A stretch of 64,000 bases of DNA from an uncultured Dehalococcoidia bacterium (GTDB taxonomy: Bacteria > Chloroflexota > Dehalococcoidia > Lucifugimonadales > UBA1127), in contig CAJWXP010000006.1 in NCBI GenBank assembly GCA_913049785.1, positions 5,538 to 69,537 of the forward strand. The letters run 5' to 3'. A program made the translations under genes and the position numbers. Numbering within the stretch: the stretch's first letter is position 1; every line of letters begins with the position of its first letter. The notes under the pieces were generated by a model. It saw nothing but the letters and a program-made list of their open reading frames with translations. It did not search any database and was not told where the DNA came from. Positions 13,316 through 38,019 of the stretch are shown piece by piece.

Positions 13316-13668
13316 GGGGACGCGTGGTTTCGACAGGGGGTAGCAGAGCGGGATTGCAGGCCGAGGTCCGCCCTCCTCGTTAAACAGGCGGAACAAAAGT
13401 AACTGGCGAGCGCGAATACGCTCTGGCTGCCTAAAAAGGCAGCCCGTCTGGCCTCTTCTTCCCTGAAGGGGAGCTCCGGGCGCAACTAAATCAGGGTGCG
13501 ACCTAAGCAGACGCCGATAAGCGACGGTCAAAGACTTAATCCGGCTGGCCAAACTAGACCCTGTCACTGGGGGATAGTGCGGTAAGAACCAAATCAGTGA
13601 CTACGCCTGGAGTATATCCCCTTGAGCGCTCTTTGGACGGGGAGTTCGACTCTCCCCCGTCTCCACCA
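13316..13668 (+). ncRNA. ssrA: tmRNA (SsrA)
   Basis: The 5' end is GGGGACGCGTGGTTTCGACAGGGG. The 3' T-arm GGGGAGTTCGACTCTCCCC is followed by an acceptor stem ending CCACCA at 13668. The tag ORF (13405-13434) reads GEREYALAA then a stop. Confidence 0.9.
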
Positions 13669-13884
13669 GAGAGACAGATTGGCTGAGCCCTCGGACGAAT
13701 TGTCCGGGGGCTCAGCCTCTTTCAGGAGCAGCATTCATCGCCGTGGCCCTTTGGAATAATCGTCTCGACTCGGCCCACGGCTTGGTCAATTACTATTTTG
13801 TCGAAAACCAGCTTCAACAATTGCTGCCGCTCGTCGAAGTTCATTGATTCTAGTCTTTGTGTCACACGCGCACAGAAAGCCTCC
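13663..13884 (+). repeat. direct repeat copy A (tmRNA CCA end + terminator + recombinase 3' tail)
   Basis: A gapless hand alignment to 31119-31340 gives about 18 mismatches in 222 positions. Confidence 0.85.
13681..13717 (+). terminator. intrinsic terminator after tmRNA
   Basis: GGCTGAGCCCTCGGAC / GTCCGGGGGCTCAGCC form a hairpin with one wobble, followed by TCTTTC. Confidence 0.7.
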
Positions 13885-14360
13885 ACTTGCTCCAAGCCTT
13901 GGTTCATATCAAATTCTCGCTGCTCTCGCTTTTCTAATTCCCTTTAGCTCCATTCCAATCCTGATCGTTGCCTCTTCTGTTTTTCCATTTCCGCTTGGTA
14001 GCGATCCAAATCCATCACACTGCCAACGTATGCTTCTGTCACCCTGTCCTCTTGGCTTTTCGCTCGCCGTAGTGCCACCTCAATTTGCTTACGCTCCGCA
14101 CCAATCCCGCTCGGCGAAGCAGTCGCCTCAACAACGCGTCTGTACTCACGCTTCAACATGTCCGGATGGCTCAATGCTTCGGTCACTGACTTCCACACCA
14201 AGTCTTCGACGAGCTGTGTTGGAAAGCCACCAGGTGTGCAGCGTTCCTTTGTGGCGAACGAGCCTGTATTAGCACCGATGCATCGGTATCCCCTGTAGTC
14301 ATGCCGTGCATACCCGGTGTAGTTCCCTCCGCATCGTGGACACCGCACCAATCCTCGCAA
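13722..14360 (-). pseudogene. large serine recombinase, 5'-truncated with in-frame TAA
   Basis: The zinc-ribbon segment (CPRCGGNYTG..YRGYRC) and the coiled-coil tail (..QQLLKLVFDKIVID..VETIIP) are present. The two track ORFs (13944-14360 and 13722-13907) share a frame and are separated by a TAA at 13944-13946. The resolvase catalytic domain is absent. Confidence 0.7.
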
Positions 14361-14620
14361 CAGGTACTGATGCCTTTTTTAGCGAGGATGAGGGCGAGAG
14401 TTGGGAGTCGGTGCTCGCCAGAGAGAACTTTCCGTGGACGTATTCTCGGGGGATCTGTACTTCACCGGCGAACGGGAAAACTGTCTTTGTTACGGTCGGA
14501 GACACTATCCCAGGCAATGACGGAGCTGTTATGCGTTCAGACGACACTGGTATGACGTGGGAGCGTGTAACTCTCCCAGACCAGCCCAACTCCGCTATGT
14601 GGGTCGTGAATCTCCAGTCG
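14354..14620 (+). pseudogene. BNR/Asp-box repeat protein fragment
   Basis: Two Asp-boxes are present: SEDEGESW (from 14381) and SDDTGMTW (14537-14560). Only about 90 codons survive, and the fragment abuts the truncated recombinase head-on. Confidence 0.5.
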
Positions 14621-14899
14621 CGTCACCGAAGTGCTACTCCCGCTTCATCAAGGAGGTTGTCTATCTCACGTTGAATCCGCTCACTCGGCATTCCCCACCC
14701 CAGAACCCACCCCTAGCTCCACAGACTCCATAGGTGGGTCGCTGCGACAGTATCTGTCTAGGTAGAGGAAGCGTCAAGGCAGGCTGTGGTAGTCAAGGGT
14801 GTCGAACCTAGCTCGATATTTGGATTCCCTTGGTTCAGTAGGTCAGATCGACCCGCCTGATGGAGTGTGAGGGTAAAGACCATCGGGTCTCTGGAACGT

Positions 14900-16135
14900 T
14901 TAGCCAGTGGCAAAGCGCGGGGTGCTGCCGCTCTGACCACTTCGCACGAACGCCGTGAGCACGGCGGAAAGCAAAAAGAATACAGCTGCCACGTAAAAAG
15001 CGCTCTCAGTACCTGTTTCCCGTGCGATAAATCCTGCGGCAACCGGGGTGCCTGTTCCCAATACAAGACCAACGAGGAACGCTGCTGCTGCTGCCGTACT
15101 CTGAAGGTCACCAGGAGCATTATCCATAACCAGAGCGTTGAATAGCGTGGCAAGACTGAACATAAAGAGACCGATGGCCACCACTGTGATGAGCAGACCG
15201 ACAGTACTTCCCTGCTGGGCCAACACGAATGCGAGAATCGATAGCAGGAGCATTGACGGAAGGATAACTACCTTCCTGCTCGTCCGGTCAGAGAGGTAGC
15301 CCAGGATTGGTTGGGTAACCAGGCTCATGCCCACAAGCAAACCGGAAAGCACTCCAACGACACTTGAGCTGATGTCCAGATCATTTAGCGCGTAGAGGGG
15401 AAGAAAGGTGATCAGCACTACTTGACCTGCGGAGCGCATGCCCCCTGCCAGCAATGCTATCAACAGAGGGCGATGCCTGGCTGCGGCCTTGAGCGCTTGG
15501 GAATAATCGCTTAGGGAGCGGTGGCCGCTTTCGCTTCCAGTTGCCACCCCACGCATTAGCAACACAAAGAGAACTGCGATTCCCAGAGCAGGAAGTAGAC
15601 TAATCCTGAATATGTCCTGCCAGGAGAGCACCAGTAGCAACGCCCCCACTGTGATGGGGCCGGTCAGATCACCAACGCCCGCTCCCACCCCATGGATGGC
15701 CATGGCAAAACCTTTCCTCTCTGGGAAACGAGTCGTCAGCAAGCCTAATGCTGGAGGATGCCACAGCGAGGAAGCAACTCCTAAGACTCCAGCTGCCATA
15801 GCCACCATGCCAAAGTTCGGGGCTAACCCAATTAAGAAGAAGGACACCCCAAACCAAACCAAACTCAGGGTCATGAATGCCTTGCGCCTGTTGGCGAATC
15901 GATCCGCGAAAACGCCCATTGGAACGTTGGCTATTGCTCCTGTAACTGAGCGAACTCCCATGATCACGCCCGCCGACAGCGGCCCCAGCCCGAGGCTTGC
16001 TACAACCTCTGCCAAGAGTACCGGGAATGCCTGCCCAAACCAGTGCACCATGGCGTGCCCGAATGAAAGGCTTGCTAAAAGCGAGATGCTCTTTGCGCTG
16101 GTCATGCTGTCTTGCTGAGTAACAGTTGGATCCAA
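14900..16135 (-). CDS. MFS transporter
   Basis: 411-aa polytopic membrane protein containing GVFADRFANRRK (an MFS loop motif). Confidence 0.85.
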   Translation of the reverse strand: MDPTVTQQDSMTSAKSISLLASLSFGHAMVHWFGQAFPVLLAEVVASLGLGPLSAGVIMGVRSVTGAIANVPMGVFADRFANRRKAFMTLSLVWFGVSFFLIGLAPNFGMVAMAAGVLGVASSLWHPPALGLLTTRFPERKGFAMAIHGVGAGVGDLTGPITVGALLLVLSWQDIFRISLLPALGIAVLFVLLMRGVATGSESGHRSLSDYSQALKAAARHRPLLIALLAGGMRSAGQVVLITFLPLYALNDLDISSSVVGVLSGLLVGMSLVTQPILGYLSDRTSRKVVILPSMLLLSILAFVLAQQGSTVGLLITVVAIGLFMFSLATLFNALVMDNAPGDLQSTAAAAAFLVGLVLGTGTPVAAGFIARETGTESAFYVAAVFFLLSAVLTAFVRSGQSGSTPRFATG

Positions 16136-16346
16136 GGAAATCTCCCTTACTTGATCCCAGGTGCGATTCTGGCCGTAGTCACGAGAAAGAAGTGTCCACC
16201 TTTAGGCAGGTATCATCTTCGGCCATCGATGGCAATATTTGCAAGCTGGCCTAACTCCATCTTTGTCGCGCATCCTGTGACTCCCGTCGTTGACACGCAT
16301 ACTGTCGGGTCTACAATGGCGGCATTCAATACACAGGAGGGAGGTT

Positions 16347-16636
16347 ATGGCTGTTGCATTCGTCCTTCAGTTCGACAATATGGGTCAAGATAATTATGCC
16401 GCGGTCATGATGGAACCGGGCCTTGATAACCCGGGGCTACCTGGCCTGAAGGAATCCTAAGCCATACGGCAGGTAAATCAGCAGATGGTTGGTGGGTAGT
16501 TGATATCTGGGAATCAGAGGTGGCAATCGGGGAGTTCAGCAAGACAACTCTTGGAACAGCGTTCACCAAAGTCGGAGGCATTTCCGAGTCAACGGTAACG
16601 ACCTTTCAGGTATACAACCAGCATCCTGCGGGGTAG
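16347..16636 (+). pseudogene. small alpha+beta protein, frameshifted
   Basis: AGGAGGGAGG precedes the ATG at 16347. MAVAFVLQFDNMGQDNYAAVM... stops after 37 codons, and the reading continues in another frame as ..WPEGILSHTAGKSADGWWVVDIWESE..FQVYNQHPAG to a stop at 16634-16636. Confidence 0.4.
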
Positions 16637-17330
16637 ACGACCAGCCTCAGCTTGTTGCTAAGAGGACAAGGCTGCTGGACAGAATCAGACTGATGCCCGT
16701 GGCGCAGGCAACTCTTAACGCTTTGACCAGCCTGTTGGTCATTCGCCCAGAGAGGTGAGCGAGGGTTGGAGCGTTCATTATCTTTCTCCTTGTCCAGCAA
16801 GTATTCCTTGCCTCTCTTCCATTATTACTCGCAGTTTCAGTCAATGAATCGCCCGGACGGATGAACAAGGAATGATTCAGTTTGCCTTAAAGAATGTTAT
16901 TACGGTGGTCTTGCCCTAAAATCGAAGTAGCCGTAGACTCCGGCGATGATGTATCAACCAGCGCCATATCTCCTCCCTATGCCTGATGGACGTCTCATGG
17001 ACACGCGCTACCGCTTCAAGAGGGGCGACCGCGTGTTGGTCATGCAGGGCCACACAAGGGCAGGAGTGCCACGGTGGACAGCAGGGACGGCCAGATGAAA
17101 GGTGAACACGGCCTGGTGTCGGTTTCGACCTACAACGTGATGCTTGGAGAGAATCGCTTGGCGCAGGTTCAGTGGGACTGGGTGCAGAAGGACTATGACG
17201 GTTCACCGTAGTTGCTAGCTCCATAAATTGAGCCCAACCCTGAGCCCCACCCCCTCCTTCTTAGATACCAGGACATTCTCGAAACAGAATATCCGCTGAG
17301 GCCCAAACGAAATAAGGGAAAGGTATAGAA

Positions 17331-17594
17331 ATGGAGTTGTTTTGGCGAGAGCACAAGTTAGGGTTGCAACTCATACTGTCCAGCGATGATCGCGAGGACG
17401 TGGTGGGAATGATCCGTAGGACACCACAAGGGTACGACGCGGCAGCCCAGGCCCTGGGCTACTTCCCAGGTCGTGCCGAGAAAGGGATCGGCTCCTTGGA
17501 AGAGGCCAAAACATTTGTTGAGTCATTCCGCCCCTGGGAGCAGTTCAACGGCCCTAGTGACCAGTCCGTCGAATCGGAAGTCCACTCCCTTTAA
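17331..17594 (+). CDS. hypothetical protein
   Basis: 87-aa ORF in a gene-poor stretch with no recognisable motif. Confidence 0.3.
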   Translation: MELFWREHKLGLQLILSSDDREDVVGMIRRTPQGYDAAAQALGYFPGRAEKGIGSLEEAKTFVESFRPWEQFNGPSDQSVESEVHSL

Positions 17595-18212
17595 GATATC
17601 GATGAACGTCATTTTCAAGCATCCCTTCGCTCTCCTGCCCCTTCACTCAGTAGTGCAAGTGAAGACTAACGATCATCGTTGAGGCTCCAAGGAGAGAATC
17701 CTCAACAGGAGCTGTGCTGAACTTTTGCTCATCTGCTTCCACTCCAAACATCCTATCGGAAGGAGATGAACACCGCCTAAACGACGCATGGCAGGCCCTG
17801 AGGGTCATATAAACATGATCAACATTTAAGGGACTCAGTTGCTAAATCGTACGAAGTATTAGCGCTTTGATCTGTCAGAAAACCGAATCTGGACCACGGT
17901 AATCCACAAAGCATCGGAATGGTCTTTGAGTTCACTTGGTCCATTAACTAAGGAACCCAATCTAGACCTCACCGAATTGATAAGTATCAGTCTTTTGGGA
18001 ATGTATACATGAGAGAAGAAATGCGGATTGGAGTTTGGATATTCTTGAGTGTGTAACTTGACAGATATGTCGCACTTCTAGCCACCCAGAACGACTTCCA
18101 GCCGCGCAGGATCGATCGGCAGTCGTGTGATGGTTGTAGTCATGATCAAGCTCCTCTAATTGGATGGGAGGGTTTGTTTGCCCCTCAAAACCCCATCTTT
18201 TCCCATGCGTTA

Positions 18213-18495
18213 TCATTTGGAGAGATGTTGGTGCAGACCGGTTTGCTTCGTTGGCTCCGCTTTCCATTCGGCTACTTTGCCCAGAGTGGCTGCAATACTT
18301 GGGTTTTCTCTGTGCGCCTCAAACGCCTGCTCCTCTCGATACACTTCATACAGCCTGAACCTGTTTGAATCGTCCGTGACTTGGAACACATCGAATCGGA
18401 CGCACCCTGGTGTTCTTGGCGTGTACCAGCAGCGCCTGAAGGTACTTTTCAGCGTGTTGTGGCTTGGCGTGGATGTCCGCCAGGATGATGTACAT
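18213..18495 (-). pseudogene. ABM (antibiotic-biosynthesis-monooxygenase-like) domain protein, frameshifted
   Basis: GGAGGAGAG precedes the ATG at 18495. MYIILADIHAKPQHAEKYLQALLVHAKNT is followed by a frame change near 18401-18413 into GCVRFDVFQVTDDSNRFRLYEVYREEQAFEAHRENP. The length of 283 nt is not a multiple of 3. Confidence 0.6.
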
Positions 18496-18528
18496 CTCTC
18501 CTCCTTGCCAGCAGGACGACCAAGATGA

Positions 18529-19716
18529 TTATTCCCCTTTGTACTCCAGGATATAGAGTCCTGCATTGGTATCGGTCAGGTACATGAGGCCGTTGCTGGT
18601 TACAAAGACATCCGCCGACTGAATCACCTGTAGACGACCCGGCCTGGGATCCACCATCCGTTCCGGAGCAGGTGGGACGTAATACGCGACTTCCCTGGGG
18701 TGAAACGGGTCAGCGATGTTGAAGACCCTCACACCTGCGTTCTGGTATGTGGCAAAGACAATCTCTGAACTCTGGAACGACCCGGGGCGGTTCTCATGGG
18801 CGTTATGGGGCCCAAACCGCCCACCCTTCTTACAGTAGTCGTCCTCGTTCGGTATGGGCATCGTTGCGATATTGACTGGGTTGGAGGGCTCTCGGACATC
18901 CACTACCCACGTGTATTTGACCTGGTCGGCGCACTCATCACCCATAGCCTCATCAAGAACGATGCAGAGGCCTCTATCCAGCAGTGGAACGGCTGTGTGA
19001 GTGCCACCACCGAACGGCGGGCTCCAGTTCCGATGCGCCAGGAGGCTTGGCGAAGTGGGATCGCTGACATCGAGCAATGTCAGTCCACCGTCACGCCAGG
19101 ATGCAAAGGCGATGCCATCTGCAACTATTGCATGATGGAGCGCGAAACGGCGGTTTCCTTCCCAGCTAGGCTCTTCGCCGCCAGCGTTCCACATCCCCGG
19201 GAGCCACCATCGCGACACCTCTGCTGGACGTGTTGGGTCGGACACGTCGACTACGATCAAAATCGTATCGGTATATCCATCCACGTTGGCAGACACGTAC
19301 GCATACTGCCCGCCCACGTACCATATCCGGTGGATACCTGTCCCTTCAACCGGCATGAACCCTATCTCCTTTGGCTGAGCAGGTTGGGAGATATCGAAAA
19401 TGCGAAGTCCGGCAGCAAAGTTGCCCGATTCGCGGGCCTCGCTCGGCTTCAGTGGGTCCAATCCGTTGACCACCAGGAGAAGGTTCTCGTGAGTCTGCAG
19501 ATGCAGACAGCGGGTGTTCTCCGGCGCAGGAATAAAAGCCGCGTGCTTCGGGTTTTTCGGGTCCCTGACGTCCAGGACCGTGAAGCCTCCGCTGAAGTTA
19601 TGCCCTATGTATGCGTAGCCGCGGTGAACCATGACCTGCACGCCGTCAGAGCGGCCCCCCTGGTCTGAGTGTGCTACAAAGTTGATGCCACGACTTGCGT
19701 TGGCCACGGTCTCCAC
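18529..19716 (-). CDS. LVIVD-repeat beta-propeller protein
   Basis: The motifs G(F/L)xV(L/F)D(V/I)xDPxxP recur five or more times: TVLDVRDPKNP, RIFDISQPAQP, IVVDVSDPTRP, TLLDVSDPTSP and RVFNIADPFHP. The start is uncertain, either GTG at 19716 or at 19707. The track ORF start overlaps the upstream gene. Confidence 0.75.
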   Translation of the reverse strand: METVANASRGINFVAHSDQGGRSDGVQVMVHRGYAYIGHNFSGGFTVLDVRDPKNPKHAAFIPAPENTRCLHLQTHENLLLVVNGLDPLKPSEARESGNFAAGLRIFDISQPAQPKEIGFMPVEGTGIHRIWYVGGQYAYVSANVDGYTDTILIVVDVSDPTRPAEVSRWWLPGMWNAGGEEPSWEGNRRFALHHAIVADGIAFASWRDGGLTLLDVSDPTSPSLLAHRNWSPPFGGGTHTAVPLLDRGLCIVLDEAMGDECADQVKYTWVVDVREPSNPVNIATMPIPNEDDYCKKGGRFGPHNAHENRPGSFQSSEIVFATYQNAGVRVFNIADPFHPREVAYYVPPAPERMVDPRPGRLQVIQSADVFVTSNGLMYLTDTNAGLYILEYKGE

Positions 19717-19736
19717 CTTTCTGCCGGAAGGCCTGC

Positions 19737-20561
19737 TCAGATAGCAGCAAATTTGAACAGACCTAAAGCCGTGCCACCGAATGCCCACTCTTTGTCTTCT
19801 TCACTGCGGAACGGTATGTACTCCATAGGGAAGTGCAGTGCGTTATGGTATCCCTCGCGTTCTGCAACGGGTGGAAAGTCACTGCCCCACACCATCCGTT
19901 TGGCGCCGAACGATTCGAACGCCATCTCAGTCAATGGCGGAAACCCCTCGAAGGGGAAGGGTTGTTTCATTGGGCGCGGACGTGGCGCGATTTCGCCTAA
20001 CCCGTGGAATTTGATGTAGGTGTTGGGGTGTTGAGAGAGACCCAGCATCTGCTTGTAGGTCATATAGGGCGCTTCCGCTGTTTTCCCAACCGAGCCTAGG
20101 TGTTCGATGATAATGGGCAGATCAGGGAACTGCCGCACCAGGTCATGGAACTCCTCTGATGCCAACTCTTCGGTTGTGCCACTACCACAGCTCACCACCA
20201 GCCCCAGCTCCTCAGCCTTCCGCCATACGGCGAGGGGGTCCGAGCCCGGAGACCGCGCCCCGGGAGCCAGACGGATCCCTTCTGCCCCCTGCTTGGCCCA
20301 GTCTTCAAGCACGTTGAGCGCATGATCTTGGTCCGTATCGACGAGGACAACGACGGAGAACCTTCCGGGGAACCGTTTGGCGCACTCAAGTAGGTATGAA
20401 TTGTCGTACTGGCCACGCATCTGAATGAGAGTAGCCTTCGCCACACCGTTCCGATCCATCTGCCCCAACAACGTCTCTATCGGCTCAAACCAATACGGTG
20501 AGGCGTGACAGTGGGTGTCCACGATCTCCATCTCGTTCAGGTCCCTCCCCTCGAATGACAC
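19737..20561 (-). CDS. amidohydrolase-2 family hydrolase/decarboxylase (ACMSD/LigI-like)
   Basis: IVDTHCH at the N-terminus, IIIEHLG and WGSDFP are present, in a 274-aa protein. Confidence 0.8.
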   Translation of the reverse strand: MSFEGRDLNEMEIVDTHCHASPYWFEPIETLLGQMDRNGVAKATLIQMRGQYDNSYLLECAKRFPGRFSVVVLVDTDQDHALNVLEDWAKQGAEGIRLAPGARSPGSDPLAVWRKAEELGLVVSCGSGTTEELASEEFHDLVRQFPDLPIIIEHLGSVGKTAEAPYMTYKQMLGLSQHPNTYIKFHGLGEIAPRPRPMKQPFPFEGFPPLTEMAFESFGAKRMVWGSDFPPVAEREGYHNALHFPMEYIPFRSEEDKEWAFGGTALGLFKFAAI

Positions 20562-20576
20562 ATCTGCAATCTTTGG

Positions 20577-21393
20577 TCAGTCGGATGGTCGCATTCCATC
20601 CGCTGTCCGTGCTTTCGCCACGTCGCAGCACCTGAAGAACTCTGCACCGGTATGGCTTTGCATGTACTTGATTAGACGTTCCAACACCATGATCTTCGCA
20701 AGCCGCCCGGTCACTTGTGGATGCATCGTCAGCGTCAAAGCCCTGCCGTACTGGTAAGCACCGTCAAACTCCCACTCCCAGGCTTTGTAGACATCCTCAG
20801 GGGTGTTCATGGACCCTGCTCCACGACTGAATGCATAGTATGGGACGTCATCCAATGCCCACTCTACAGGTATCTCTACCATCCGTCCGTTGGCCGTGTC
20901 GACAAAGTAGGGAGCATCGTCTCCCATCAGACTCGAGTCATACAGGAAGCCACGCTCCGCCAGCAGGTCCAGGCTGTACGGGCTGAGTTCCCACGACGGC
21001 AAGGTGCCCCAGGGGCCGTTGTCCGGTGATCCGATCCAGGATCTGAAGACCCCTGTCGAGGACTTCGGCTTCCTTCTGAGGTTCCAAGGTGGCTGGGGGC
21101 TCGTGCATGTAGCCGTGATGACCAATCTTGTGCCCTCGGCGAAGTATCTCCACGACGGTCTCTTCGTTTGTTTCTGCGATGAAGCCGGGTATGAAGAACG
21201 TCGCTGGGACCCCATACGTTTCCAGCAAGTCCAGGATGCGGAACACGCCGACGTTAGGGCCGAACTCCCCTCTCGACATTGCTGTAGGGCGGTCAACCGC
21301 ACCCGGATCACGGTTCAATAGACCTGTCACGCCGTCCAGGTCAAATCCGAGTAACACACCACATCGAGTGTCGCCAGGCCAAATACCCGTCAT
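20577..21393 (-). pseudogene. polysaccharide deacetylase (NodB-like) family, single frameshift
   Basis: The N-terminal part lies in ORF 20938-21393 (ATFFIPG..GHKIGHHGYMHE..ITGQRPLG). The C-terminal part lies in ORF 20577-21311 (..LPSWELSPYSLDLLAERGFLYDSS..). The frames swap at the CCCC/GGGG runs at 21003-21016, and the total length of 817 nt is not divisible by 3. Confidence 0.7.
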
Positions 21394-21462
21394 CCCTTAT
21401 CCCCTTTCAGACATTTCTCCGGCGTAGTGCTCTACCAGAGCGTCATCTCTCCCATTACGCCT

Positions 21463-22740: not shown

Positions 22741-22856
22741 AGTGCCCCCTCCTGATTTTCTTGATCATACGTACCATTTGAGTATGTCCCGGTGCCACAG
22801 CGCCCACTCCAAGGATGGCTGCGTCTTCATCTCCTGGAGGATTTTGACCCCATAAT

Positions 22857-23315
22857 TTACGACGCACCCTCGCGATGCGTCAGACCAAGTCCCATTGCGT
22901 TTAACCCGACTTCGGCTGCATCAACGTCGCGTATTGGGCCGCCCGGTGCTTTCGCCTGAGTCCCACCACTCACACCAATACCACCAACGACTTTCTTACC
23001 CGAAACTACCGCCAACCCTCCTGCCAGCGTGGTGATCATACGATCATTCCAGTCTAGCTGGCTGCTTTCAACATCTTGCCACCATTGTCTCAAAGCTGTT
23101 GTATCGCGTTCAAAAATCGCCGCCGTGTAGGCCTTTCTAATTGCGCCATCGAGAAACCTAGGGGCGAGTCCGTCCATCCGTAGCGCTGAAATGAGCTCGC
23201 CGGACTTGTCTACGACTGCAACAGCCAGAGGCCGCTCCACTTCCGTCGCTTTCTCTCGAACCGCGGTAATTGCGCTGAGCGCCTCGTCTACTCCTAAGCG
23301 GGTTTCCTCCAACAT
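22857..23315 (-). CDS. GlcG/HbpS-like (DUF336) haem-binding protein
   Basis: 152 aa with the AVAVVDKSGELIS..GGLAV..GGIGVSGG pattern. Confidence 0.75.
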   Translation of the reverse strand: MLEETRLGVDEALSAITAVREKATEVERPLAVAVVDKSGELISALRMDGLAPRFLDGAIRKAYTAAIFERDTTALRQWWQDVESSQLDWNDRMITTLAGGLAVVSGKKVVGGIGVSGGTQAKAPGGPIRDVDAAEVGLNAMGLGLTHREGAS

Positions 23316-23568
23316 GGTTCAAACTCCCCCTCTCCTACGCCTTCAGGATGTCTCGGTGCCGCAGTGTCCGCTCCAGGGACGGCTGCATCTTCATCTCCTG
23401 GAACTCCCCGATGGCGAAGTCCAGGTGCTCCAGGGCTTCGGCCCGCCGTCGGGGTAGCGCTCCCAGAGGATGTCGGCCAACACTTTTGCCAATTTCTTGA
23501 TCCGGTCCTGACATATTACGGTTCCTAACTGAACCAGTACCGGGGATCCACTTTATTGAAAGTCTCTA

Positions 23569-24228
23569 TTAGTCCCCTAGTTGAATAGTGGTAATTGGTT
23601 TGACTAGGGTCTCCAATAGTGGAGAAGCCAATGCCATCACCCTGTTGGTTACTTGCTGACCAAATGAAATTTGAGACGTAAAACCTATAATGATACTTAG
23701 CTTTCCGTCAGGTTGCCTATCGATCATGACCGATGTTGAAGGATCTTCAAATCCGGCAACGCGAACTCCCTGTACCGCAGCGTTTTCAAACCCAACGGTA
23801 CGTGCGATCGGGAACGGCAATGCGATCACGGGGTTGGTCTCATCTATTTCGAAGATAAACGACGCGATGCACTTTGTTTCCTCGTTTAACTCGATCCGCC
23901 TCAGTGCGCCAAGTAATGAATTAATTTCATCCATCCGGTTTAACTTGGAAGCGCTGGCCTCATCATCAGATCCCGATGACCAATTCACGTCCAAGCTTAC
24001 GTGGATGCTACGAAAACCTCGTTGTGGTACCACCTTAGAAATGGATACGTCCATGTTGACGAAATTGTACCCACCGGATGCTTCCATTCGACCAAATAAA
24101 TGGCGGATACTGCGGCGAGAATTGGTACCTAAAGAGGCCAGAAGGTGTTGAACGTTTTCTACAGAAACGTCACTCTGTACGAATACCGTTATTCGTTCAA
24201 CAGGTTTTGCAATTGGTCTTAGCGGCAT
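23569..24228 (-). CDS. hypothetical protein
   Basis: 219-aa ORF in a visibly AT-richer patch. No motif was recognised and the only plus-strand ORFs overlapping it are shorter (153 and 66 aa). Confidence 0.5.
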   Translation of the reverse strand: MPLRPIAKPVERITVFVQSDVSVENVQHLLASLGTNSRRSIRHLFGRMEASGGYNFVNMDVSISKVVPQRGFRSIHVSLDVNWSSGSDDEASASKLNRMDEINSLLGALRRIELNEETKCIASFIFEIDETNPVIALPFPIARTVGFENAAVQGVRVAGFEDPSTSVMIDRQPDGKLSIIIGFTSQISFGQQVTNRVMALASPLLETLVKPITTIQLGD

Positions 24229-24299
24229 TGGATACGCTCCAATTCAGCAACCAAGCAATCCAGCGGACAACGACTTGAGCGGTCGCCTAATCCATCGGC

Positions 24300-25601
24300 T
24301 CAGCGCAACCGCTCACCGCGTTTGGCGCTCTCGCCTGCATCGGCGGCGACTTCCCAAGCGTCATCATCGGGCCCAATAATGATTTCCTCAGAGCGGATCA
24401 TGTGGAAAGGAATGCTTGGGTCTAGAGCAGGAGGCTGATCTCCCTCTAGGAGACCTCTTGCAGCGCTCAGGAGCATCTGGCGAAGTCTGATGATAGCCGC
24501 ATCGGCCGAATACAGGTGCTCATTGGTTCTATCGTAGATGGGCCCCATGCTTTCCGTGACGCAATAATCCTGCTCTCCCCCCGACCAGATGCCGGATATG
24601 AGCTTCGTCTTCTGAGCCTCACGGTCAATCATGTAATCGTTGTCCGCCCGGAGCAGCCTCATACTCGGATCGTTGGGGTCCATAACCATAGCCTGCCGCT
24701 TGCGCTGCTCGCGTTCGGCGGCTGTGAATGGCCGTCCGGGTCTTGCTGAAAAGCTCATCCTGAAGCAATTCTCATCGTCAACCGGCACGTGCATCAGAGG
24801 GCCTCCAGAACCCCGCGGCGCTGCGATGAACGTAACGTAAGGCATGACCTGGCAGTTGATACGAAGGTGCTGATTTCCAGCCTCTGTGGGACGAATGGCG
24901 ATGAGCCGAAACCCATACGACGTATCCTGCACCTCTACGTTCGCATATCGGTAATGCGCTCGTTGATAGATGGACTGGGTAAGATCGGGATACCCCGGCT
25001 GGTCGGGCTCCGTGAGCTCGATTTTGAAGTCATCCAGATACCTATGCAACGTGCCTAGATGGCTCGAGTCGATGTTTCCTTCCAGGCTTTGGACCCAATT
25101 GCAGTAAATGGGAGTGCGCGTAGCTATAACACAGTCCGGATCAACACGATTGAACATGAAATCCGGAGAAGGCGGTTGGTGTTCGGCCGGTCCCATGTAC
25201 GCCCAGACAGCACCTGCGGATTCTATGCAGGGATAGGACGTGGTTCGGACCTTGTCCTTAAAGTTGCTATCAGGAAGGTCGGACGGCATGTCGACACACT
25301 GTCCGTTAACGTCAAATTTCCAGCCATGATAGATGCACATAATTCCACAATCCTGATTGATGCCAAAGAACAACGATGCACCTCGATGGGGACACCGCTC
25401 ATCGAGGAGCCCTACCTTGCCCTCGGAGTCTCGGAAGGCAATTAAGTCCTCGCCTAGGAGTCTAATCCGAAGGGGGGCTCCATCATTTTTCGGCAACTCC
25501 TCAGAGAGCAGGAATGGATGCCAGTAACGTCGCAGCACGTTCCCCATCGGGGTACCGGGGCCGACCCTGCACAAAATCTCATTGTCTTCAGTGGTTAGCA
25601 C
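24300..25601 (-). CDS. Rieske non-heme-iron oxygenase alpha subunit
   Basis: CPHRGASLFFG..CIYHGWKF and NWVQSLEGNIDSSHLGTLH are present. The start is GTG, preceded by GGGGAGG. Confidence 0.9.
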   Translation of the reverse strand: MLTTEDNEILCRVGPGTPMGNVLRRYWHPFLLSEELPKNDGAPLRIRLLGEDLIAFRDSEGKVGLLDERCPHRGASLFFGINQDCGIMCIYHGWKFDVNGQCVDMPSDLPDSNFKDKVRTTSYPCIESAGAVWAYMGPAEHQPPSPDFMFNRVDPDCVIATRTPIYCNWVQSLEGNIDSSHLGTLHRYLDDFKIELTEPDQPGYPDLTQSIYQRAHYRYANVEVQDTSYGFRLIAIRPTEAGNQHLRINCQVMPYVTFIAAPRGSGGPLMHVPVDDENCFRMSFSARPGRPFTAAEREQRKRQAMVMDPNDPSMRLLRADNDYMIDREAQKTKLISGIWSGGEQDYCVTESMGPIYDRTNEHLYSADAAIIRLRQMLLSAARGLLEGDQPPALDPSIPFHMIRSEEIIIGPDDDAWEVAADAGESAKRGERLR

Positions 25602-25621
25602 AATGACCTCCCCTTAAAGCT

Positions 25622-26386
25622 CTATTGTCCGCCATTTACTGAGATGGTCTGTCCAGATACGTAATCGGCGTCTTCCGACGCTAAGAAAGCAATGACCTTT
25701 GCCTGGTCTTCTGGAACGGCAATACGCCTCATTGCTACACGAGCTAGCATAGCCTTCTGTACTTCAGGAGCGCGTTTCGCCCATCGTTGTTCCGCCACTC
25801 GTGCGCTCATCGTCATGCTGGGAGCCACGGCATTGACGTTGATACCGTAGGGGCCAGCCTCTTGAGCCACCCGTGATGTGAATGAGATGATTCCGCCCTT
25901 GGCGGAGGAATAGGCGGCCCCGCTCTGAACCAGACCCGTCGCCGCTATAGAGGACAGATTGATGATCTTGCCCGATCCCCGGTTTTTCATGTGCGGAAGC
26001 ACCGCCTTACAGTAGAGGAAGGTAGCTTTGAGGTTGAAGTCCACCATCCGTTCCCATTCTTCCAGTTGGAACTCCTCAACTGGACGATTGTTGTCAGGGA
26101 CAACAGTGCTGCCACCAACACAGTTCACCAGGATGTCAATATGTCCCCACCGGTCCAACACGGAAGCAACTGTGGCTTCCACCTGGTCAGGATCAAAGGC
26201 ATCGGATACCTGCGGGGCCACTTCGCCAGAAGACTCGGCCAGATCGCTGACCAGCGATTCCAAAGACGTAGCGTCGATATCGACCGCCCCAAGACGGCCT
26301 CCCTCGTTAACGATGATTTCCCCGGTGGCTTTCCCGATGCCGTTTCCAGCGCCGGTGATAATCGCGACCTTCTCTGAAAACCGCAT
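25622..26386 (-). CDS. short-chain dehydrogenase/reductase
   Basis: TGAGNGIG and YSSAKGG (YxxxK) are present. The start is ATG at 26386 after AGGAG. The track ORF extends upstream into the neighbouring gene. Confidence 0.9.
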   Translation of the reverse strand: MRFSEKVAIITGAGNGIGKATGEIIVNEGGRLGAVDIDATSLESLVSDLAESSGEVAPQVSDAFDPDQVEATVASVLDRWGHIDILVNCVGGSTVVPDNNRPVEEFQLEEWERMVDFNLKATFLYCKAVLPHMKNRGSGKIINLSSIAATGLVQSGAAYSSAKGGIISFTSRVAQEAGPYGINVNAVAPSMTMSARVAEQRWAKRAPEVQKAMLARVAMRRIAVPEDQAKVIAFLASEDADYVSGQTISVNGGQ

Positions 26387-26417
26387 GGATGCTCCTAAAT
26401 TGGGGTGGTTGAGGTCG

Positions 26418-27041
26418 TTATCCCCGCACAATAATCTCGTAGCGCTCGCGTGCCGAAGGTCTATTGAGGTCCGTATATAGACTTGCGGCATGGTCCTTTT
26501 GGAACGCTTGGATTTCTTCGTGGCTTTCAGACGCATCGTAGTCGGCTATGTTGCGGTATCCGTTCAAGAGCAGCTGGTTGATTGGATCTCCCATCCAGCG
26601 GAAGAGTTCACTGCAAGCGAAACCGGGAGCGTGCTTCTGACGCAACTTCGCCAGCTCGTCCCGGCTGACCTCAAACGGCTTCACTGCTGGCAGGCGCAGT
26701 GTCCACTCAATGATGGCTACCACTTCCGCTTCATCCTGATCTCCTACAAGTGTCGTGGCGGTGTATCCTTGTACCGGTGCGTCCACGGTGACTAATGAAG
26801 CGATTTTGTTCTTCTCTTGGAACGCCGCTGTTTCCGGGCTCTTGCGGTACGTCTCGGCAGCCTCACGTGTCTCCCAGCGAGTATGGATTTCATACTTCGA
26901 CGGATGCCCTAATGCATGAAAAACAGTCAGCATCACAAACTCGGGTTGTCCCTTATGTCGGTCAGCCAGTTGATGGAAGATGGTTTCAATCTTGGCGTGA
27001 GTACCCGTTCTAGTACTGACCTGTGTCCTTTGCAGATACAT
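26418..27041 (-). CDS. tandem ABM / dimeric alpha-beta-barrel domain protein
   Basis: 207 aa with two halves that each resemble ABM domains (..YEIHTRWETREAAETYRKSPE.. and ..NGYRNIADYDASESHEEIQAF..). The call is weak. Confidence 0.5.
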   Translation of the reverse strand: MYLQRTQVSTRTGTHAKIETIFHQLADRHKGQPEFVMLTVFHALGHPSKYEIHTRWETREAAETYRKSPETAAFQEKNKIASLVTVDAPVQGYTATTLVGDQDEAEVVAIIEWTLRLPAVKPFEVSRDELAKLRQKHAPGFACSELFRWMGDPINQLLLNGYRNIADYDASESHEEIQAFQKDHAASLYTDLNRPSARERYEIIVRG

Positions 27042-27087
27042 GGTTCCCTCCCCTTGATGGTACGCTAATTATCTCAACCGTGCAGCG

Positions 27088-28392
27088 TCATACCCGAGCT
27101 ATAGCGTCTTCTCGACGTTCCTCCAAGAATTTTCCAAAATCCGGCTCTGGGGAAAAGGTGTGGATTGACCGCACACGATAGAGGTCTCCATGCGACGCAG
27201 GATAGGGTTCAATCCCCTCTTGGAGGTCTCTTGCCAACGTCAAGAGCAATCGACGCGCACGTATGATGGCGGCATCTGTGGTGCCGAGATGTTCCTTCGT
27301 CCGGTCGGCCACAGCTCCCATGCCGTCAGTCACCATTTCGTCTTGACTCCGGGCGGTAGCTATCCCGGTGAAGCTGAGAGTCTTCTGCGCCTCTCGGTCT
27401 ATCAAGTAGTCGTTGTCGGCGTTGCGGATATCTCTCCAGGTATCCAACACCGCTCCGTCTAGCATTCGATACTTAACTTGCTCCACCGTCGGGCTTATTC
27501 TCAGCCCGTCGCGCTCGTGTTCAGTTATCGGGTCGTCTCCAGCGCTGAAGTAGTACTGAATGACCGAGGTATGATCATCATCAATGGGGACGTAGGCCCT
27601 TCCACCCTGGGGCCAACCGGGGCGCGGCCCAGCGGTGATGCTGTACACGGGCAACATCCATTGCGTGACGCGCCAGTAATAGTCCTTATCTCCGGTGTTC
27701 CTCCGGGACCCGTAAACAAACCCATAATCTGTGTCCTGTACGGTCAGCATCGGCGCACCGTCTCGTTGGCCGTAGACCTGGGTCTCCGCGCCGCGCCTGT
27801 CCGGGTTTTCGTTGGAGTAGGGGTCGAACCGCTTATGGAGATACGTAGTGTGGGCAGTGTCTATCTCCCCTTCAGTACCTTGCATATAGTTCGCTTCTTG
27901 TATCCATCGGCTGAGTTCTCTATGCGTGTCCGGCACTCGGCACCACTCCATCTGTGGCAACTCTGGTTGGAGACCTTGTGGCCCCATATATAACCAGACG
28001 CACCCGCCGAACTCCTTGGCTGGGTACGCTTTGATCTTTACCTTGTCTTTGAAGTTGCTTTCCGCAGGTTCAGAGGGCATATCTACACAGTTGCCGTCGA
28101 CGTCGAACTTCCAGCCGTGGTATACGCACCTGAGGCCACACTCCTCGTTGCGTCCAAAAAACAGGCTCGCTCTTCGATGTGGACAGGCGGAATCGATAAT
28201 ACCAACTCGGCCGTTAGTGTCCCGGAACGCCACCAGGTCTTCACCGAGTAATCGGAAGCGCAGCGGCGGGCAGTCAGGCTGGGATAGCTCTGTGGATAGC
28301 AGCGCGGGAAGCCAAAATCGACGGAAGACCTCACCCATTGGCGTGCCAGAGCCCACCTGGGTTAAGAGTTCATTATCTGCTTTGCTCAACAT
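27088..28392 (-). CDS. Rieske non-heme-iron oxygenase alpha subunit
   Basis: CPHRRASLFFG..CVYHGWKF and NYMQGTEGEIDTAHTTYLH are present. GAAGGAGG lies upstream of the ATG. Confidence 0.9.
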   Translation of the reverse strand: MLSKADNELLTQVGSGTPMGEVFRRFWLPALLSTELSQPDCPPLRFRLLGEDLVAFRDTNGRVGIIDSACPHRRASLFFGRNEECGLRCVYHGWKFDVDGNCVDMPSEPAESNFKDKVKIKAYPAKEFGGCVWLYMGPQGLQPELPQMEWCRVPDTHRELSRWIQEANYMQGTEGEIDTAHTTYLHKRFDPYSNENPDRRGAETQVYGQRDGAPMLTVQDTDYGFVYGSRRNTGDKDYYWRVTQWMLPVYSITAGPRPGWPQGGRAYVPIDDDHTSVIQYYFSAGDDPITEHERDGLRISPTVEQVKYRMLDGAVLDTWRDIRNADNDYLIDREAQKTLSFTGIATARSQDEMVTDGMGAVADRTKEHLGTTDAAIIRARRLLLTLARDLQEGIEPYPASHGDLYRVRSIHTFSPEPDFGKFLEERREDAIARV

Positions 28393-28646
28393 TTTGAGCC
28401 TCCTTCTCTAATTGTGAGAGAGGAATATCGGCTAGGGCCTAGCATTGAATCGGGTTTGGTCTGCCTTGCGCCTTTGACTGATACTAGATGAATAGTAGAA
28501 CAATTCAATCAAAAGCGCTTTGCAACTTGGTCGCCCACACAATGAGTCCCCCCGTAATCGAGAGGACTCATCGCCTATGTGGAGGGTACCACGCTAGCTA
28601 TGTTAATTGGGCATTCCCACCGATTGCCCGCAGCCAGAAACGATCC

Positions 28647-30494
28647 TTACTGAGCCGCCTTGATGAATTCAAGGTGGGTGTGCGTACTGGTGATAGCACC
28701 CGGATAGATGTAGTCACTGACGAACTTAGGATTGATCACCGTTTCAGGAACCAGCCAGAACAGCGGGACCGTATAATATTTAGTAAAGGAAATCTCGCCC
28801 AACTCATGGAGCCACGCCTCTTGCTTTACGACATCCAGCGATCCCCGGATCTGGAGGAAGAGTTCGTCCATACGCGGGTCCTCCGGGTTGCCTGTCCGTG
28901 GGGTGGAGTGGGTGGCATAGACCCGGATCCCCAGCAGGAGGTGGGAGCTGGTGCCGGTGATGTTTAGCGAGTTGTCGTACTCGAAGTTCCGGCCCCTGGC
29001 CCGCCGTGTAGCATTGTCTTCAACAACGAGTTTGGGCTTCATGCCCACGTCTGAGAGGAACCCGAATACTGCGTCCACAACATCCAGAGACCCGGAGTAG
29101 TGGGTAAGGTTGATGGACGCCAGATCAATCTCGAACGGGTTGTCAGCAGTGTATCCAGCCTCTGCTAGCAGGGCCCGGGCCTTCGCGGGATCGTAGCCGT
29201 AGAACTGCTCGAAGCGGCTTGCCCATCTGGGATCCCAACCTTCGCGGGTGGGGTGGAAGTTGTTCAAGATCATGACCTCGCCCTTGCCGCCGAAAAAGGA
29301 TACATTCAGCAGGTCCCGGTCGATGGCGCGGTTGATGGCCTCCCGGACCCGTACGTCCTGCATGGGGGCGTCTGGGTACTTATACGCTGCGTCAAACTCA
29401 GGAAGTGTGCTTCGGGTGGAAGAGGTGGCAGGCAGGCGGATGCAGCATCGGAGGGCCATGAAAGTCCGTAGACCTGGGACATTGCCCTTTGCAATCTTCA
29501 TGCCAGCATCAAGCATCTGACTGAGGTTGTCCTCTGGTATGGGAGCCAGGTGGATCTCTCCCGCCAACACGCCGGCGACCCTGGTAGATGCCTCAGGTAT
29601 CCAGCGAATCTCCAGCTCCTGGAAGTCCGGTGTCATGCGCCAGTGCTCGTAAGGCGTTCGCTCGTAGCGGAAGAACGATCCAGTTGTATGGTCTAAGAAC
29701 TGGTAGGGGCCTGTGCCTGCATTAGGCTGTTGTGTTAAATTCGGCACTCCCGTCGCTTCCCGATGGTCCTTGCTCTGGATCAGGAGGCTCTGAGACAACT
29801 CACTGGTGAGGATGAACAGGTCCGCTGCTGGTGACGGCGCGCGGAAGATCACCTCATAATCGTTGACGACCTCTACTGTAGTAACGAGCCTCCGCATGCT
29901 CGCTGAGTTCCCATGCCCTGAATCTTCAGCAGCTATTTGCTGCCAACTATGTAACACGTCTTTCCCTGTGAACTCACCCCAGCCGCTATGGAATTGAATG
30001 CCTTCACGAAGCTTGAAGCGCCAGGACTTGCCGTCCGCGTCAACGCTCCAACTCTCCGCCAACTGGGGTATCAGGGCTCCGGTCACCGGATCCATTCCCA
30101 CAAGGTACTCATACATCGGCGTCAGAGGTTGGGCGTCAACGGGGCCGTTCTTTCCCGGTGTGAAGTTTTCTACTTGCGGTGCAACCTTGGCAAAGATGAC
30201 CCGCTGGATTTTCGCTTCCACGGGTGCGGCCATAGCGCCACCAGATGCCGCGATGGGTGCAGTTGCAGCTGCCGGAGTTCCCACTGCGATAATTGCCGCA
30301 GGTGCGGCGGTTGGCGCAGCAGCGGCTGCGGCCGCAGCAGCGGCTGCGGCTGGGGCCGCAGGCTCAGCGGTGGTGCCAGACGTGTTTGTGGTCGTCGTGT
30401 CATCATCACCACTGGAACAGGCTGCTGTTATTGCTAAAACAAGAATGAGAATCAGGAACAAACCAAATCTAGATGCGTATCGCGAACTGGTCAT
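28647..30494 (-). CDS. ABC transporter substrate-binding lipoprotein, family 5 (peptide/nickel/opine type)
   Basis: The signal peptide and lipobox read LVLAITAAC, followed by a Thr- then Ala/Pro-rich linker that includes a 12-Ala run. The body is SBP_bac_5-like. ATG at 30494 follows GGGGAGGG. Confidence 0.85.
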   Translation of the reverse strand: MTSSRYASRFGLFLILILVLAITAACSSGDDDTTTTNTSGTTAEPAAPAAAAAAAAAAAAPTAAPAAIIAVGTPAAATAPIAASGGAMAAPVEAKIQRVIFAKVAPQVENFTPGKNGPVDAQPLTPMYEYLVGMDPVTGALIPQLAESWSVDADGKSWRFKLREGIQFHSGWGEFTGKDVLHSWQQIAAEDSGHGNSASMRRLVTTVEVVNDYEVIFRAPSPAADLFILTSELSQSLLIQSKDHREATGVPNLTQQPNAGTGPYQFLDHTTGSFFRYERTPYEHWRMTPDFQELEIRWIPEASTRVAGVLAGEIHLAPIPEDNLSQMLDAGMKIAKGNVPGLRTFMALRCCIRLPATSSTRSTLPEFDAAYKYPDAPMQDVRVREAINRAIDRDLLNVSFFGGKGEVMILNNFHPTREGWDPRWASRFEQFYGYDPAKARALLAEAGYTADNPFEIDLASINLTHYSGSLDVVDAVFGFLSDVGMKPKLVVEDNATRRARGRNFEYDNSLNITGTSSHLLLGIRVYATHSTPRTGNPEDPRMDELFLQIRGSLDVVKQEAWLHELGEISFTKYYTVPLFWLVPETVINPKFVSDYIYPGAITSTHTHLEFIKAAQ

Positions 30495-31118
30495 AATACC
30501 CTCCCCAAGGTCTATGTTATCCGAATATAGTCCCCGTACGAGCGGGTAAACTAGCATAATCTTATAAATTAGTCAAGAACCATTCTTATTGAAATATGCT
30601 ACGGAATCAATTTATAGTTCGCGAAAATACATCTGAATATGAAATAACATCCGGGAATTCCAATGGTTTACAAATATCCGTTATGTAAATAAGCACTCTT
30701 TATGTTGTCGGATACATACGATCATTGAGGAGCTGTGGAATTGGGAATTGTACCAAGCGAAGATCCAGGTCTTGTTACAGTGAGAGTTGGAATTTAACCA
30801 TTCTCTTTTATCGGCAACGCGCAGAAGGCGAATGTGCGTAGTAGTGGTGTCGATTCTCGTCGCCGAACTAATCGGGGGCATCAATCGTTGGCGAGCATAC
30901 CGGACTAAAGGGTTTGATACGGCCTCATGCGGCCAACTAATCTCAATCAAAAAGGTCGAGTCTCTCGTAGCGCACGAAAGCATTCCTTAGGGTTCACCGA
31001 GGCCCAGCAGGAGCGGATTCACCAGCAGGACTATCGAGGCCGCGAACCATCCCCAAATACGTTTCCCGGCGCCGCCCTTGAGTCTGGCACTGATCCGCTT
31101 ATGTGCCCGGTGCCGGGC

Positions 31119-31340
31119 CCACCAGAGAGACAGATTGGCTGAGCCCTCGGACGAATTGTCCGAGGGCTCAGCCTTTTTCAGGAGCAGCACTCAACGCCGT
31201 GACCCTTTGGAATGATCGTCTCGACTCGGACCACGGCTTGGTCAATTACTATTTTGTCGACAACCAGCTTCAATAATTGCTATCGCTCGTCGAGGTTCAT
31301 TGATTCCAGTCCCTGTGTCACACGGGCACAGGAAGCCTTC
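31119..31340 (+). repeat. direct repeat copy B
   Basis: Matches 13663-13884 with an offset of 17456 nt. It starts with CCACCA and includes a perfect 16-bp hairpin at 31137-31173. Confidence 0.85.
31178..31340 (-). pseudogene. relic of large serine recombinase C-terminal tail (copy B)
   Basis: It translates to ..ARVTQGLESMNLDER*QLLKLVVDKIVIDQAVVRVETIIPKGHGVECCS*. The in-frame TAG lies at 31280-31282, and nothing upstream is recombinase-like. Confidence 0.55.
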
Positions 31341-32402: not shown

Positions 32403-32919
32403 GATCCCTCCATACCGCGACTACCTTGGAGTTCACCTTCTCCTTAATTCCCTGAGCGTCGTTCTCTACAAACGCCCTTTGACTTCAGGCCCATCAACCG
32501 GTTACGCTGTGCCCTACGGGTCAATATCCAATTTCTTTTCATGAACCTCTCGACTCGCCAAATTTCTTCTATTCCCAAATCAGATCAATGCTATCTACAC
32601 AATCGTTTGCGAATGGGCCGATGATGTCAGAGAGGGTGGCAAGAGTCAAGGCAGATTCAAACCAACGCACGCTATCTAATCCCCATGCGTGCCCTACCTG
32701 GCCTCTGCAATAATAGCTGCTACCAGCAATTCAGACCTCGCTTCTCATCGCCCTATTGAGCCCAATTGATTCGACTTGACGAAGGTTGAAGCAAGTGCTA
32801 ATTTCGAACATATAGATCTTCGTGTGACCATAATTCATCTAATTACGATGAACTTCGTACGGGTAGCTGGCACGCTGAGCATATTACCTGCGTAGTTCGC
32901 AACACTAAAGGAGGGTGTT

Positions 32920-33837: not shown

Positions 33838-33887
33838 AGATCAACCACTTCACGACTTGTAACCAACACGCCGGAGGTTAGGAAGCT

Positions 33888-38006: not shown

Positions 38007-38019
38007 ATTCAGCTTCTCC

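Follow-up and report, generated by a model that had tools for sequence, protein, structure and literature searches.

In a marine SAR202 (Dehalococcoidia) metagenome-assembled genome (MAG), the last nucleotides of the tmRNA gene ssrA open a 230-nt direct repeat whose second copy lies about 17.5 kb downstream. These two copies are interpreted here as the left ends of two related, dead integrative islands that were inserted in tandem at the ssrA 3' end, a reading to which a probability of roughly 0.62 is assigned. The locus was analyzed within a window of 64,000 nt (contig CAJWXP010000006.1), to which all coordinates refer. The presumed integration target, ssrA, occupies 13316-13668 (+), is called by ARAGORN as well as by Rfam RF00023 (163.5 bits), and encodes the tag peptide GEREYALAA. 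Its left neighbor is smpB at 12734..13237 (+) (PF01668, E = 1.5e-50), and the smpB-ssrA pair is kept in 12 related Dehalococcoidia loci. ARAGORN and Rfam detected no tRNA-like locus. An initial interpretation made from the letters of the DNA alone (the sequence-only reading) had proposed an ssrA-targeted island between two 222-bp direct repeats and considered tandem accretion as its origin.

The two copies (copy A, 13663-13892; copy B, 31119-31348) align without gaps, with 209 of 230 positions identical (91%) and 21 mismatches, and represent the only long two-copy repeat of such quality within the window. The hand count of about 18 mismatches over 222 bp in the sequence-only reading agrees with the exact alignment, which gives precisely 18 mismatches in the first 222 nt and extends the repeat to 230 nt. 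Sequence identity begins abruptly at CCACCA, the last 6 nt of the tmRNA, with 23 unrelated nt to the left, and stops at 13892/31348. As had been described from the sequence, each copy starts in the last 6 nt of ssrA and presents the same order of parts: CCACCA, a 12-nt spacer (GAGAGACAGATT in copy A), a hairpin with a 16-bp stem, 4 nt, and the stop codon and C-terminal tail of a minus-strand recombinase, with the shared tail ..LLKLV(F/V)DKIVIDQAV(G/V)RVETIIPKGHG(D/V)ECCS*. The hairpins at 13681-13717 (-42.5 kcal/mol, z = -6.5) and 31137-31173 (-40.8 kcal/mol, z = -7.8) are both strong, and no shuffled sequence folded as stably as either of them. The mismatches are unevenly spread: nucleotides 1-62 contain 2 and nucleotides 1-96 contain 6, and the remaining 134 nt account for 15. 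In three other strains (L072, L073 and L074) the hairpin of copy B lacks one A (GGCTGGCCC vs GGCTGAGCCC) and copy B is therefore free to drift; the hairpin of copy A is intact in L069/L070. Judging from these few strains, constraint seems to act only on the hairpin copy that terminates ssrA.

Both recombinase tails belong to remnants of large serine recombinase genes. Remnant A, assigned to element 1, runs from 13722 to ~14378 (-), ends 54 nt from the ssrA end and retains only a zinc ribbon (PF13408, E = 4e-9), a coiled coil and a C-terminal strand; the catalytic and 'Recombinase' domains are missing and an in-frame stop is present at 13944-13946. Upstream of this remnant the frame is broken and a BNR/Sortilin-type gene fragment follows on the opposite strand (14306-14674, +; weak PF15902/PF02012 matches), whose abutment on the truncated 5' side of the remnant is a deletion or rearrangement scar. 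Remnant B (31178-31348) comprises 57 codons, is interrupted by a separate stop at 31280-31282 and breaks off where an arylsulfotransferase-like gene (31347..32402, -; PF05935/PF14269) has its stop codon. A tblastn search with 18 recombinase homologs, using full-length and N-terminal catalytic-domain queries, yielded no PF00239-type resolvase catalytic domain anywhere in the window. Recombinase-like sequence is confined to 13734-14450 and 31190-31375, so no catalytic domain survives. The loss of the catalytic domain and the nonsense codon had already been noticed in the sequence-only reading, and to this can be added that each copy has a stop of its own. Both recombinases are pseudogene fragments, the islands are therefore immobile and fixed, and current activity is not expected.

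The sharp boundary at the last 6 nt of ssrA, the shared order of parts and the separate nonsense codons support the tandem-island interpretation. A serine integrase leaves only a 2-bp crossover, and the 230-bp repeat is therefore not a target duplication; this origin is further excluded because the longer of the two remnants lies next to the left copy, contrary to the arrangement expected from a duplication around an insert. The proposal that such a long repeat requires two related elements in tandem thus holds, and it has a precedent in Dehalococcoides (PMC3146451). The ssrA genomic islands (ssrA-GIs) of this genus are arranged in tandem and feature a 20-bp ssrA repeat and a reverse-strand dsiB gene whose 3' end always overlaps the attachment site attL (McMurdie et al., 2011; PMC3146451). 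DsiB, a protein of ~540 aa, mobilizes these tandem ssrA-GIs, and 15 of 31 islands are without an integration module (PMC3146451).

Relatives of this genome carry, at the same spot, remnants of a family of serine recombinases that overlap ssrA. The open reading frame (ORF) that abuts ssrA in locus L076 shares 37% identity (E = 1e-37) with residues 375-517 of the 556-aa Dehalococcoides mccartyi serine recombinase P0238. Its 86 database homologs (P0019-P0104), some of which retain recombinase Pfam domains, all measure 280 residues or less, which indicates that decayed tails are very common. In most of them the C-terminus corresponds to the 3' end of tmRNA translated in antisense, in one of three frames (WWRRGRVEL, VETGESRTP and GGDGGESNSP). 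Many of the short homologs diverge from tmRNA after 18-27 nt and therefore sit at ssrA-end repeats away from the gene; at L081, there is no tmRNA within 6 kb. An intact family member was found by scanning viral contigs (IMG/VR): L085:7305-9220 encodes a 542-aa recombinase with resolvase, recombinase and zinc-ribbon domains, and its last 68 nt overlap ssrA on the opposite strand. With smpB beyond ssrA, and a DnaB helicase, a replication-protein-O homolog and a TumE toxin upstream, L085 looks like a working ssrA-specific element that is phage-like or mobilizable. Among the 120 best full-length homologs of its recombinase (P0153-P0272), 95 end in antisense tmRNA tails, and P0238 is 46% identical to it over the full length. 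The family matches the published description of DsiB, and P0238 is a candidate for DsiB itself. Primer REC_003eF, taken from the Dehalococcoides study, matched none of the loci.

Comparison with this family revealed that the repeat unit is composite, since the 96 nt next to ssrA correspond to a DsiB-type left end and the recombinase body (13759-14378) belongs to another lineage. This left-end module covers the first 96 nt of each copy (13663..13758 in copy A), from CCACCA through the spacer and hairpin to the final 12 codons (PKGHGDECCS*). It is homologous to the left ends of L082, L076, L078 and L084 and is shared with DsiB-type ssrA elements of relatives; the tail of P0069, for example, reads PEGHGDECCS. 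On the ssrA side, homology to L082 extends to 13758; the stretch homologous to the other recombinase lineage has its limit at 13734-13752. In L084, the window-type spacer and hairpin follow a 19-nt ssrA repeat at a junction other than ssrA, and the module thus travels with mobile elements and is not native flank. The recombinase body is 45-52% identical to the lineage P0002-P0014, whose 3' ends run into REP-like (repetitive extragenic palindromic) sequences of the form GTGAGCCTGTCGAACCA ... CTCAGGACGAACGG (L064:10800-10960; L065:3380-3660; L068:8780-8860). These palindromes translate as GEPVEP or LSNH and give rise to variable C-terminal tails. The 'RGEPVEP' tails of these homologs had been considered as antisense tRNA, a candidate that was dropped given their REP-like nature and the lack of any tRNA or tmRNA nearby. 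Copies A and B carry the same join of the module to the foreign recombinase body, and the composite either arrived twice as a mobile unit or formed once in place and was then copied.

The left-end module presents further features. The element hairpin (window 13677-13689) begins with GATTGGCTGAGCC; in the more distant relatives L003-L009, the apparently native ssrA terminators lie almost equally far from the CCA end and begin with GATTGGCCAAGCC. Convergence, half-site similarity or the element's capture of a host terminator could account for this resemblance. Prompted by the GATTGGCCAAGCC start, the hairpin had been considered as the native ssrA terminator, as had a crossover ~90 nt downstream of ssrA; both ideas were dropped after L084 was analyzed. 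The same locus led to the rejection of copy B as a P0079-like junction minus 12 nt, as its DNA shows no shared right end. At ~420-470 of L084 (reverse complement), an inverted copy of the 19-nt ssrA repeat stands directly before the repeat itself (TGGTGGAGACG..CGTCTCCACCA), and this dyad may represent the attP core of the family.

The variability of the site was followed in three sets of sequences: related loci were gathered by an SmpB scan with one genome per species, conspecific contigs by exact-protein look-ups, and the other-species loci L076-L078 by a hairpin-pattern scan of metagenome contigs. In each close relative smpB-ssrA itself is kept and the ssrA 3' flank differs. In L003-L009 (SmpB 70-74% identical), ssrA is followed by a terminator, one membrane-protein gene and then the genes found from window position 57019 onward. 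In L001 (SmpB 92%), imuB-dnaE2 lies directly after ssrA. L002/L076/L077 and L082 (~78% nucleotide identity) present the same type of hairpin followed by an ORF of 150-200 codons, the recombinase remnant, that reads towards and through ssrA; this ORF is followed by imuB-dnaE2, which a formamidase and an SRAP gene (L076 only) precede. Homologs of window 52429-54009 appear after imuB-dnaE2 in L082, where synteny with the window resumes at 52352. Finally, L078 has the hairpin and ~75 nt of the ORF tail joined to a molybdopterin-oxidoreductase fragment. On this comparison of loci, the ssrA 3' flank is a plasticity zone in the clade, and the 17.5 kb is just the first part of it. The error-prone polymerase cassettes imuB-dnaE2 are located at L001:11068-15627, L076:1-4922 (with the SRAP peptidase gene) and L082:1087-5628; the L001 cassette has a Cheo-box-like promoter (GAACATATATTC), and the window is without such a cassette.

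The repeat anatomy and its reproducibility, the decay of both remnants, the variability of the site among relatives and the ssrA-overlapping recombinase family in the class are direct observations, and the following course of events could account for them. A working element would have carried a large serine recombinase gene at its left edge, on the reverse strand and running up to or into ssrA. Its circular form would recombine with the ssrA 3' end, whereby the left end of the element, with its strong terminator hairpin, would become the new 3' flank of ssrA. A later arrival would insert between ssrA and the resident island and would leave an internal attP-like junction consisting of the right end of the newer island, the core and the left end of the older island. 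Copy A would then be the attL of the newer island (13669-31118), which holds a major facilitator superfamily (MFS) transporter gene and an array of Rieske-oxygenase, hydrolase and binding-protein genes, and copy B would be the internal junction between element 1 and element 2, the older island beginning at 31119. Subsequently, ~300 codons would have disappeared from the N-terminal part of remnant A, which also acquired a stop, and remnant B would have been cut to 57 codons and gained its own stop. The 12-20 nt by which the ssrA repeat falls short at copy B might have been lost by later deletion, or the crossover might have occurred at or after the CCA end. It is from this layout that we infer arrival of the 17.5 kb as one element, catalysis by a serine recombinase, the order of arrival and the fate of the missing ssrA nucleotides.

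Between the repeats, the BNR-type fragment is followed by the intact MFS transporter gene (14900..16135, -; PF07690, E = 1.6e-55) and by ~2.4 kb without long ORFs (16136..18528), which contain gene debris including, at the end, an ABM fragment (18213-18566). Pfam scans assigned the catabolic array (18529..30557, -), in order, to LVIVD, amidohydrolase_2, an unknown, three Rieske/LigXa genes, HbpS-like, a second unknown, a short-chain dehydrogenase/reductase (SDR), ABM and SBP_5. An AT-rich promoter region and further sequence (30558..31118) form the right end of element 1. Beyond copy B, the stretch 31349..52350, which is likewise absent after ssrA in relatives, contains genes for NMT1-like substrate-binding proteins, CMD, a 2-oxoacid:ferredoxin oxidoreductase, three Rieske proteins, ABC permeases, SBP_5 and a nitroreductase. 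Neither a recombinase nor a further ssrA-end repeat was detected in 31349-52350, and this stretch may represent the cargo of element 2 or older accretions. The claim of the sequence-only reading that only about 220 bp of element 2 survive is thus not established, given that the lineage-specific stretch runs to ~52.35 kb, or to ~56.9 kb in comparison to the more distant relatives. Scans of 31-57 kb for ssrA-end repeats or right-arm motifs that delimit older islands gave nothing above chance, and the CCACCA at 56801 was dropped as an island boundary because the window contains 39 CCACCA. A Rieske N-terminal fragment (MLPQEENELLSRVGPWTPMGEL) lies at 52037-52150, just to the left of the resumed L082 synteny. 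Across the 64 kb, paralogs comprise six Rieske/LigXa genes (21463-28392, 40132-41391 and 46123-49027), three SBP_5 genes (28647-30557, 44275-46068 and 60359-62182) and three genes for NMT1-like binding proteins (32920-33837, 35306-36259 and 50917-51798). With nucleotide identities of 61-78%, these paralogs are old duplicates and not recent copies.

Several observations weigh against two ssrA islands in tandem. Copy B shares only CCACCA with ssrA, with 9 of the last 15 nt matching, whereas family junctions keep 18-27 nt. With 3 mismatches allowed, the 19-nt ssrA end has no second match in the window, and when up to 6 are allowed, matches are no commoner there than in shuffled sequence; these scans also revealed no displaced tmRNA fragment in the window. 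The family-type right-arm motif is absent at the right end of element 1 (30558-31118), and no phage, conjugation or other mobility genes were found among the Pfam-scanned ORFs between the repeats. The window remnant shares 22% identity (E = 2e-6) with P0238 of D. mccartyi and falls outside the DsiB clade, and members of its own lineage (P0002-P0014) on long contigs (L064-L068) have no tmRNA gene alongside; this lineage may or may not ever have recognized ssrA. In addition, the cargo resembles genes outside the repeats, as had been cautioned from the sequence: three further Rieske genes and two further SBP_5 genes are located there within the window. GC content and tetranucleotide profiles of 13.7-31.1 kb are indistinguishable from the flanks, with correlations of 0.87-0.90 as between other segments, so that the suggested composition check did not set the 17.5 kb apart. 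The window-specific stretch also exceeds the repeat-bounded segment, extending from 13759 to ~52350 against L082 and over 13.7-56.9 kb against L003-L009. Nor did relatives provide the empty site that the sequence-only reading had proposed to look for, in which ssrA is joined directly to the arylsulfotransferase-like gene: conspecific assemblies show neither this site nor a deletion of the 17.5 kb, the SmpB scan reached only relatives of about 78% nucleotide identity or less, and the hairpin-pattern scan of metagenomes returned only three loci (L076-L078), all from other species and without an empty site. The proposal of two tandem ssrA islands therefore stands in part: the anatomy, the precedent and the remnants at the same site in relatives speak for it, but the mobility of the 17.5 kb is an extrapolation from these and the recombinase body is of another lineage.

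Several of these points would also be expected if a single old remnant had resided at ssrA and its 230 bp had been copied in situ, by duplication plus deletion or by gene conversion, with the 17.5 kb being ordinary paralog-expanded DNA. The composition of this segment equals that of its flanks, its cargo stems from gene families of which the window holds six (Rieske) and three (SBP_5) paralogs, the ssrA repeat is limited to 6 nt without any right-arm motif, and the same composite junction in both copies is explained most simply if it was formed once. However, a random endpoint would fall within 6 nt of the ssrA end with an estimated chance of ~1 in 5000 per 64 kb. Moreover, the 9% divergence and the separate nonsense codons must have arisen in situ, even though conspecific assemblies differ by just 0.1-0.2%, and a tandem duplication needs an extra large deletion that ends exactly at the arylsulfotransferase stop codon. 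Local copying is consequently regarded as unlikely, though it is the alternative that survives best.

A Campbell-type insertion, in which a circle from a related strain with the same left end crossed over through the ~230 bp of homology and no active recombinase took part, is rated as rather improbable. The length of the repeat is plausible for a homology tract, neither recombinase copy is functional, and the two copies agree better over the first 62 nt than over the remainder, a pattern expected of a crossover tract. Yet a border of the circle at CCACCA still calls for site-specific excision at the ssrA end, which makes this scenario a variant of tandem accretion, and 91% identity over 230 bp is a poor RecA substrate.

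The second repeat could also have resulted from misassembly or binning, with a chimeric join through a repeated terminator. Several short-read contigs (L072-L075) end within 20-800 nt of copy B and the region is split over several contigs in the NCBI MAG GCA_009392685.1, as might be anticipated for such an artefact. Independent metagenome assemblies nevertheless reproduce both junctions at 99.8-99.9%, and the repeats are therefore not an assembly artefact, a check that the sequence-only reading had suggested. Contigs L069/L070 span window 3944-24345 at 99.8% and cross copy A, and contigs L072, L073, L074 and L075 run from 42402 leftward to 30545, 30910, 31032 and 31328, respectively, at 99.9%; the first three of these derive from different samples and extend through copy B into the sequence on its left. 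The 21 differences between the copies also show that they are not collapsed reads of one locus. A 78,202-nt record with genes from both sides holds SmpB, MFS, a cargo Rieske protein and the arylsulfotransferase, and it may be the window's own source and thus not independent; an exact match of the cargo Rieske protein was found on one 9-kb MAG contig only. From the L069 coordinates together with the 78-kb record, we infer one independent contig that spans both repeats. An artefact thus appears highly improbable. The same low credence is given to a classical tyrosine-integrase island with the serine recombinase as mere cargo: tyrosine integrases classically target tmRNA genes (PMC4383910), but no phage-integrase domain occurs among the ORFs scanned at 8-64 kb, the repeat is without the 3' part of ssrA that such islands duplicate, and the recombinase tail abuts ssrA as in serine-recombinase ssrA-GIs.

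Among known systems, the locus most resembles the Dehalococcoides ssrA-GIs, with which it shares the bacterial class, the target (the 3' end of the single-copy tmRNA gene), the tandem placement downstream of it and a reverse-strand large serine recombinase at the left edge, of which only remnants exist in the window. In both cases the cargo consists of metabolic paralog families, and the integration module of the islands is often lost. Their occurrence among relatives is sporadic, and the relatives of the window carry DsiB-family remnants at the same spot. In contrast to ssrA-GIs, 6 nt of ssrA are repeated in the window instead of 20 bp, a hairpin lies between ssrA and the recombinase stop codon without overlap of the ORF with ssrA, and the recombinase body comes from another lineage (22% identity), with both copies being pseudogenes. 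The cargo also differs, as Rieske oxygenases, an amidohydrolase, an SDR, a binding protein and an MFS transporter take the place of reductive dehalogenases. Furthermore, Pfam scans of the long ORFs at 13.7-31.3 kb yielded none of the accessory module (the small serine recombinase DsiA, RecF-like, ParB and primase-like proteins, and Mom with its embedded tRNA-like locus). Three defining features of ssrA-GIs are thus present (position, left-edge reverse-strand recombinase and sporadic occurrence) and three are absent (20-bp repeat, DsiB clade and accessory module), which makes the locus a decayed relative and not an exact member of the ssrA-GI family.

A 23-kb dcpA island of Dehalogenimonas is likewise located directly downstream of ssrA and contains recombinase genes and direct repeats of 11-25 bp (PMC13390414). 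This island has a GC bias (45.8% vs 54-56%) and intact mobility genes, and the window has neither. Serine-recombinase cassettes in tandem at the 3' end of one gene (orfX/rlmH), including composite and recombinase-less ones, are also represented by SCCmec/CcrAB of Staphylococcus; here, the target gene and the phylum differ, two recombinases are involved and the att cores are short. Islands of the Islander class, which are integrated into tRNA and tmRNA genes by tyrosine integrases, share the tmRNA target, the restored 3' side of the target and the occurrence of tandem arrays (PMC4383910). Unlike those islands, the window has a repeat that lies almost wholly downstream of the gene, and its only recombinase is of the serine type.

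The targeting of tmRNA by serine recombinases is already known in this class, and a specialist on Dehalococcoidia would expect such islands. A full-text literature search found no paper that links SAR202 with ssrA islands, and the new aspects are the extension of these islands to SAR202 and their catabolic cargo. The paralog expansion of SAR202 is well known, and Dehalococcoides gathers reductive dehalogenase genes at ssrA. Against this background, it can be tentatively hypothesized that ssrA of SAR202 serves as an accretion platform for catabolic cassettes delivered by serine-recombinase islands, that part of the paralog expansion is island-borne, and that an integrase swap onto a DsiB-type left end took place. 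Such a swap on a conserved attachment module would explain why the composite unit exists in two diverged copies. The locus itself is a dead relic, whose direct value is that of a historical trace and not of an active system. The antisense-tmRNA tail provides a simple marker for serine-recombinase islands at ssrA in metagenomes. If the tandem-island reading is right, serine-recombinase islands at ssrA would not be peculiar to organohalide-respiring Dehalococcoides and would also occur in the abundant SAR202 bacteria of the deep ocean. Their islands would carry the oxygenase and transport families whose expansion defines the group, providing a testable route for the spread of these paralogs.

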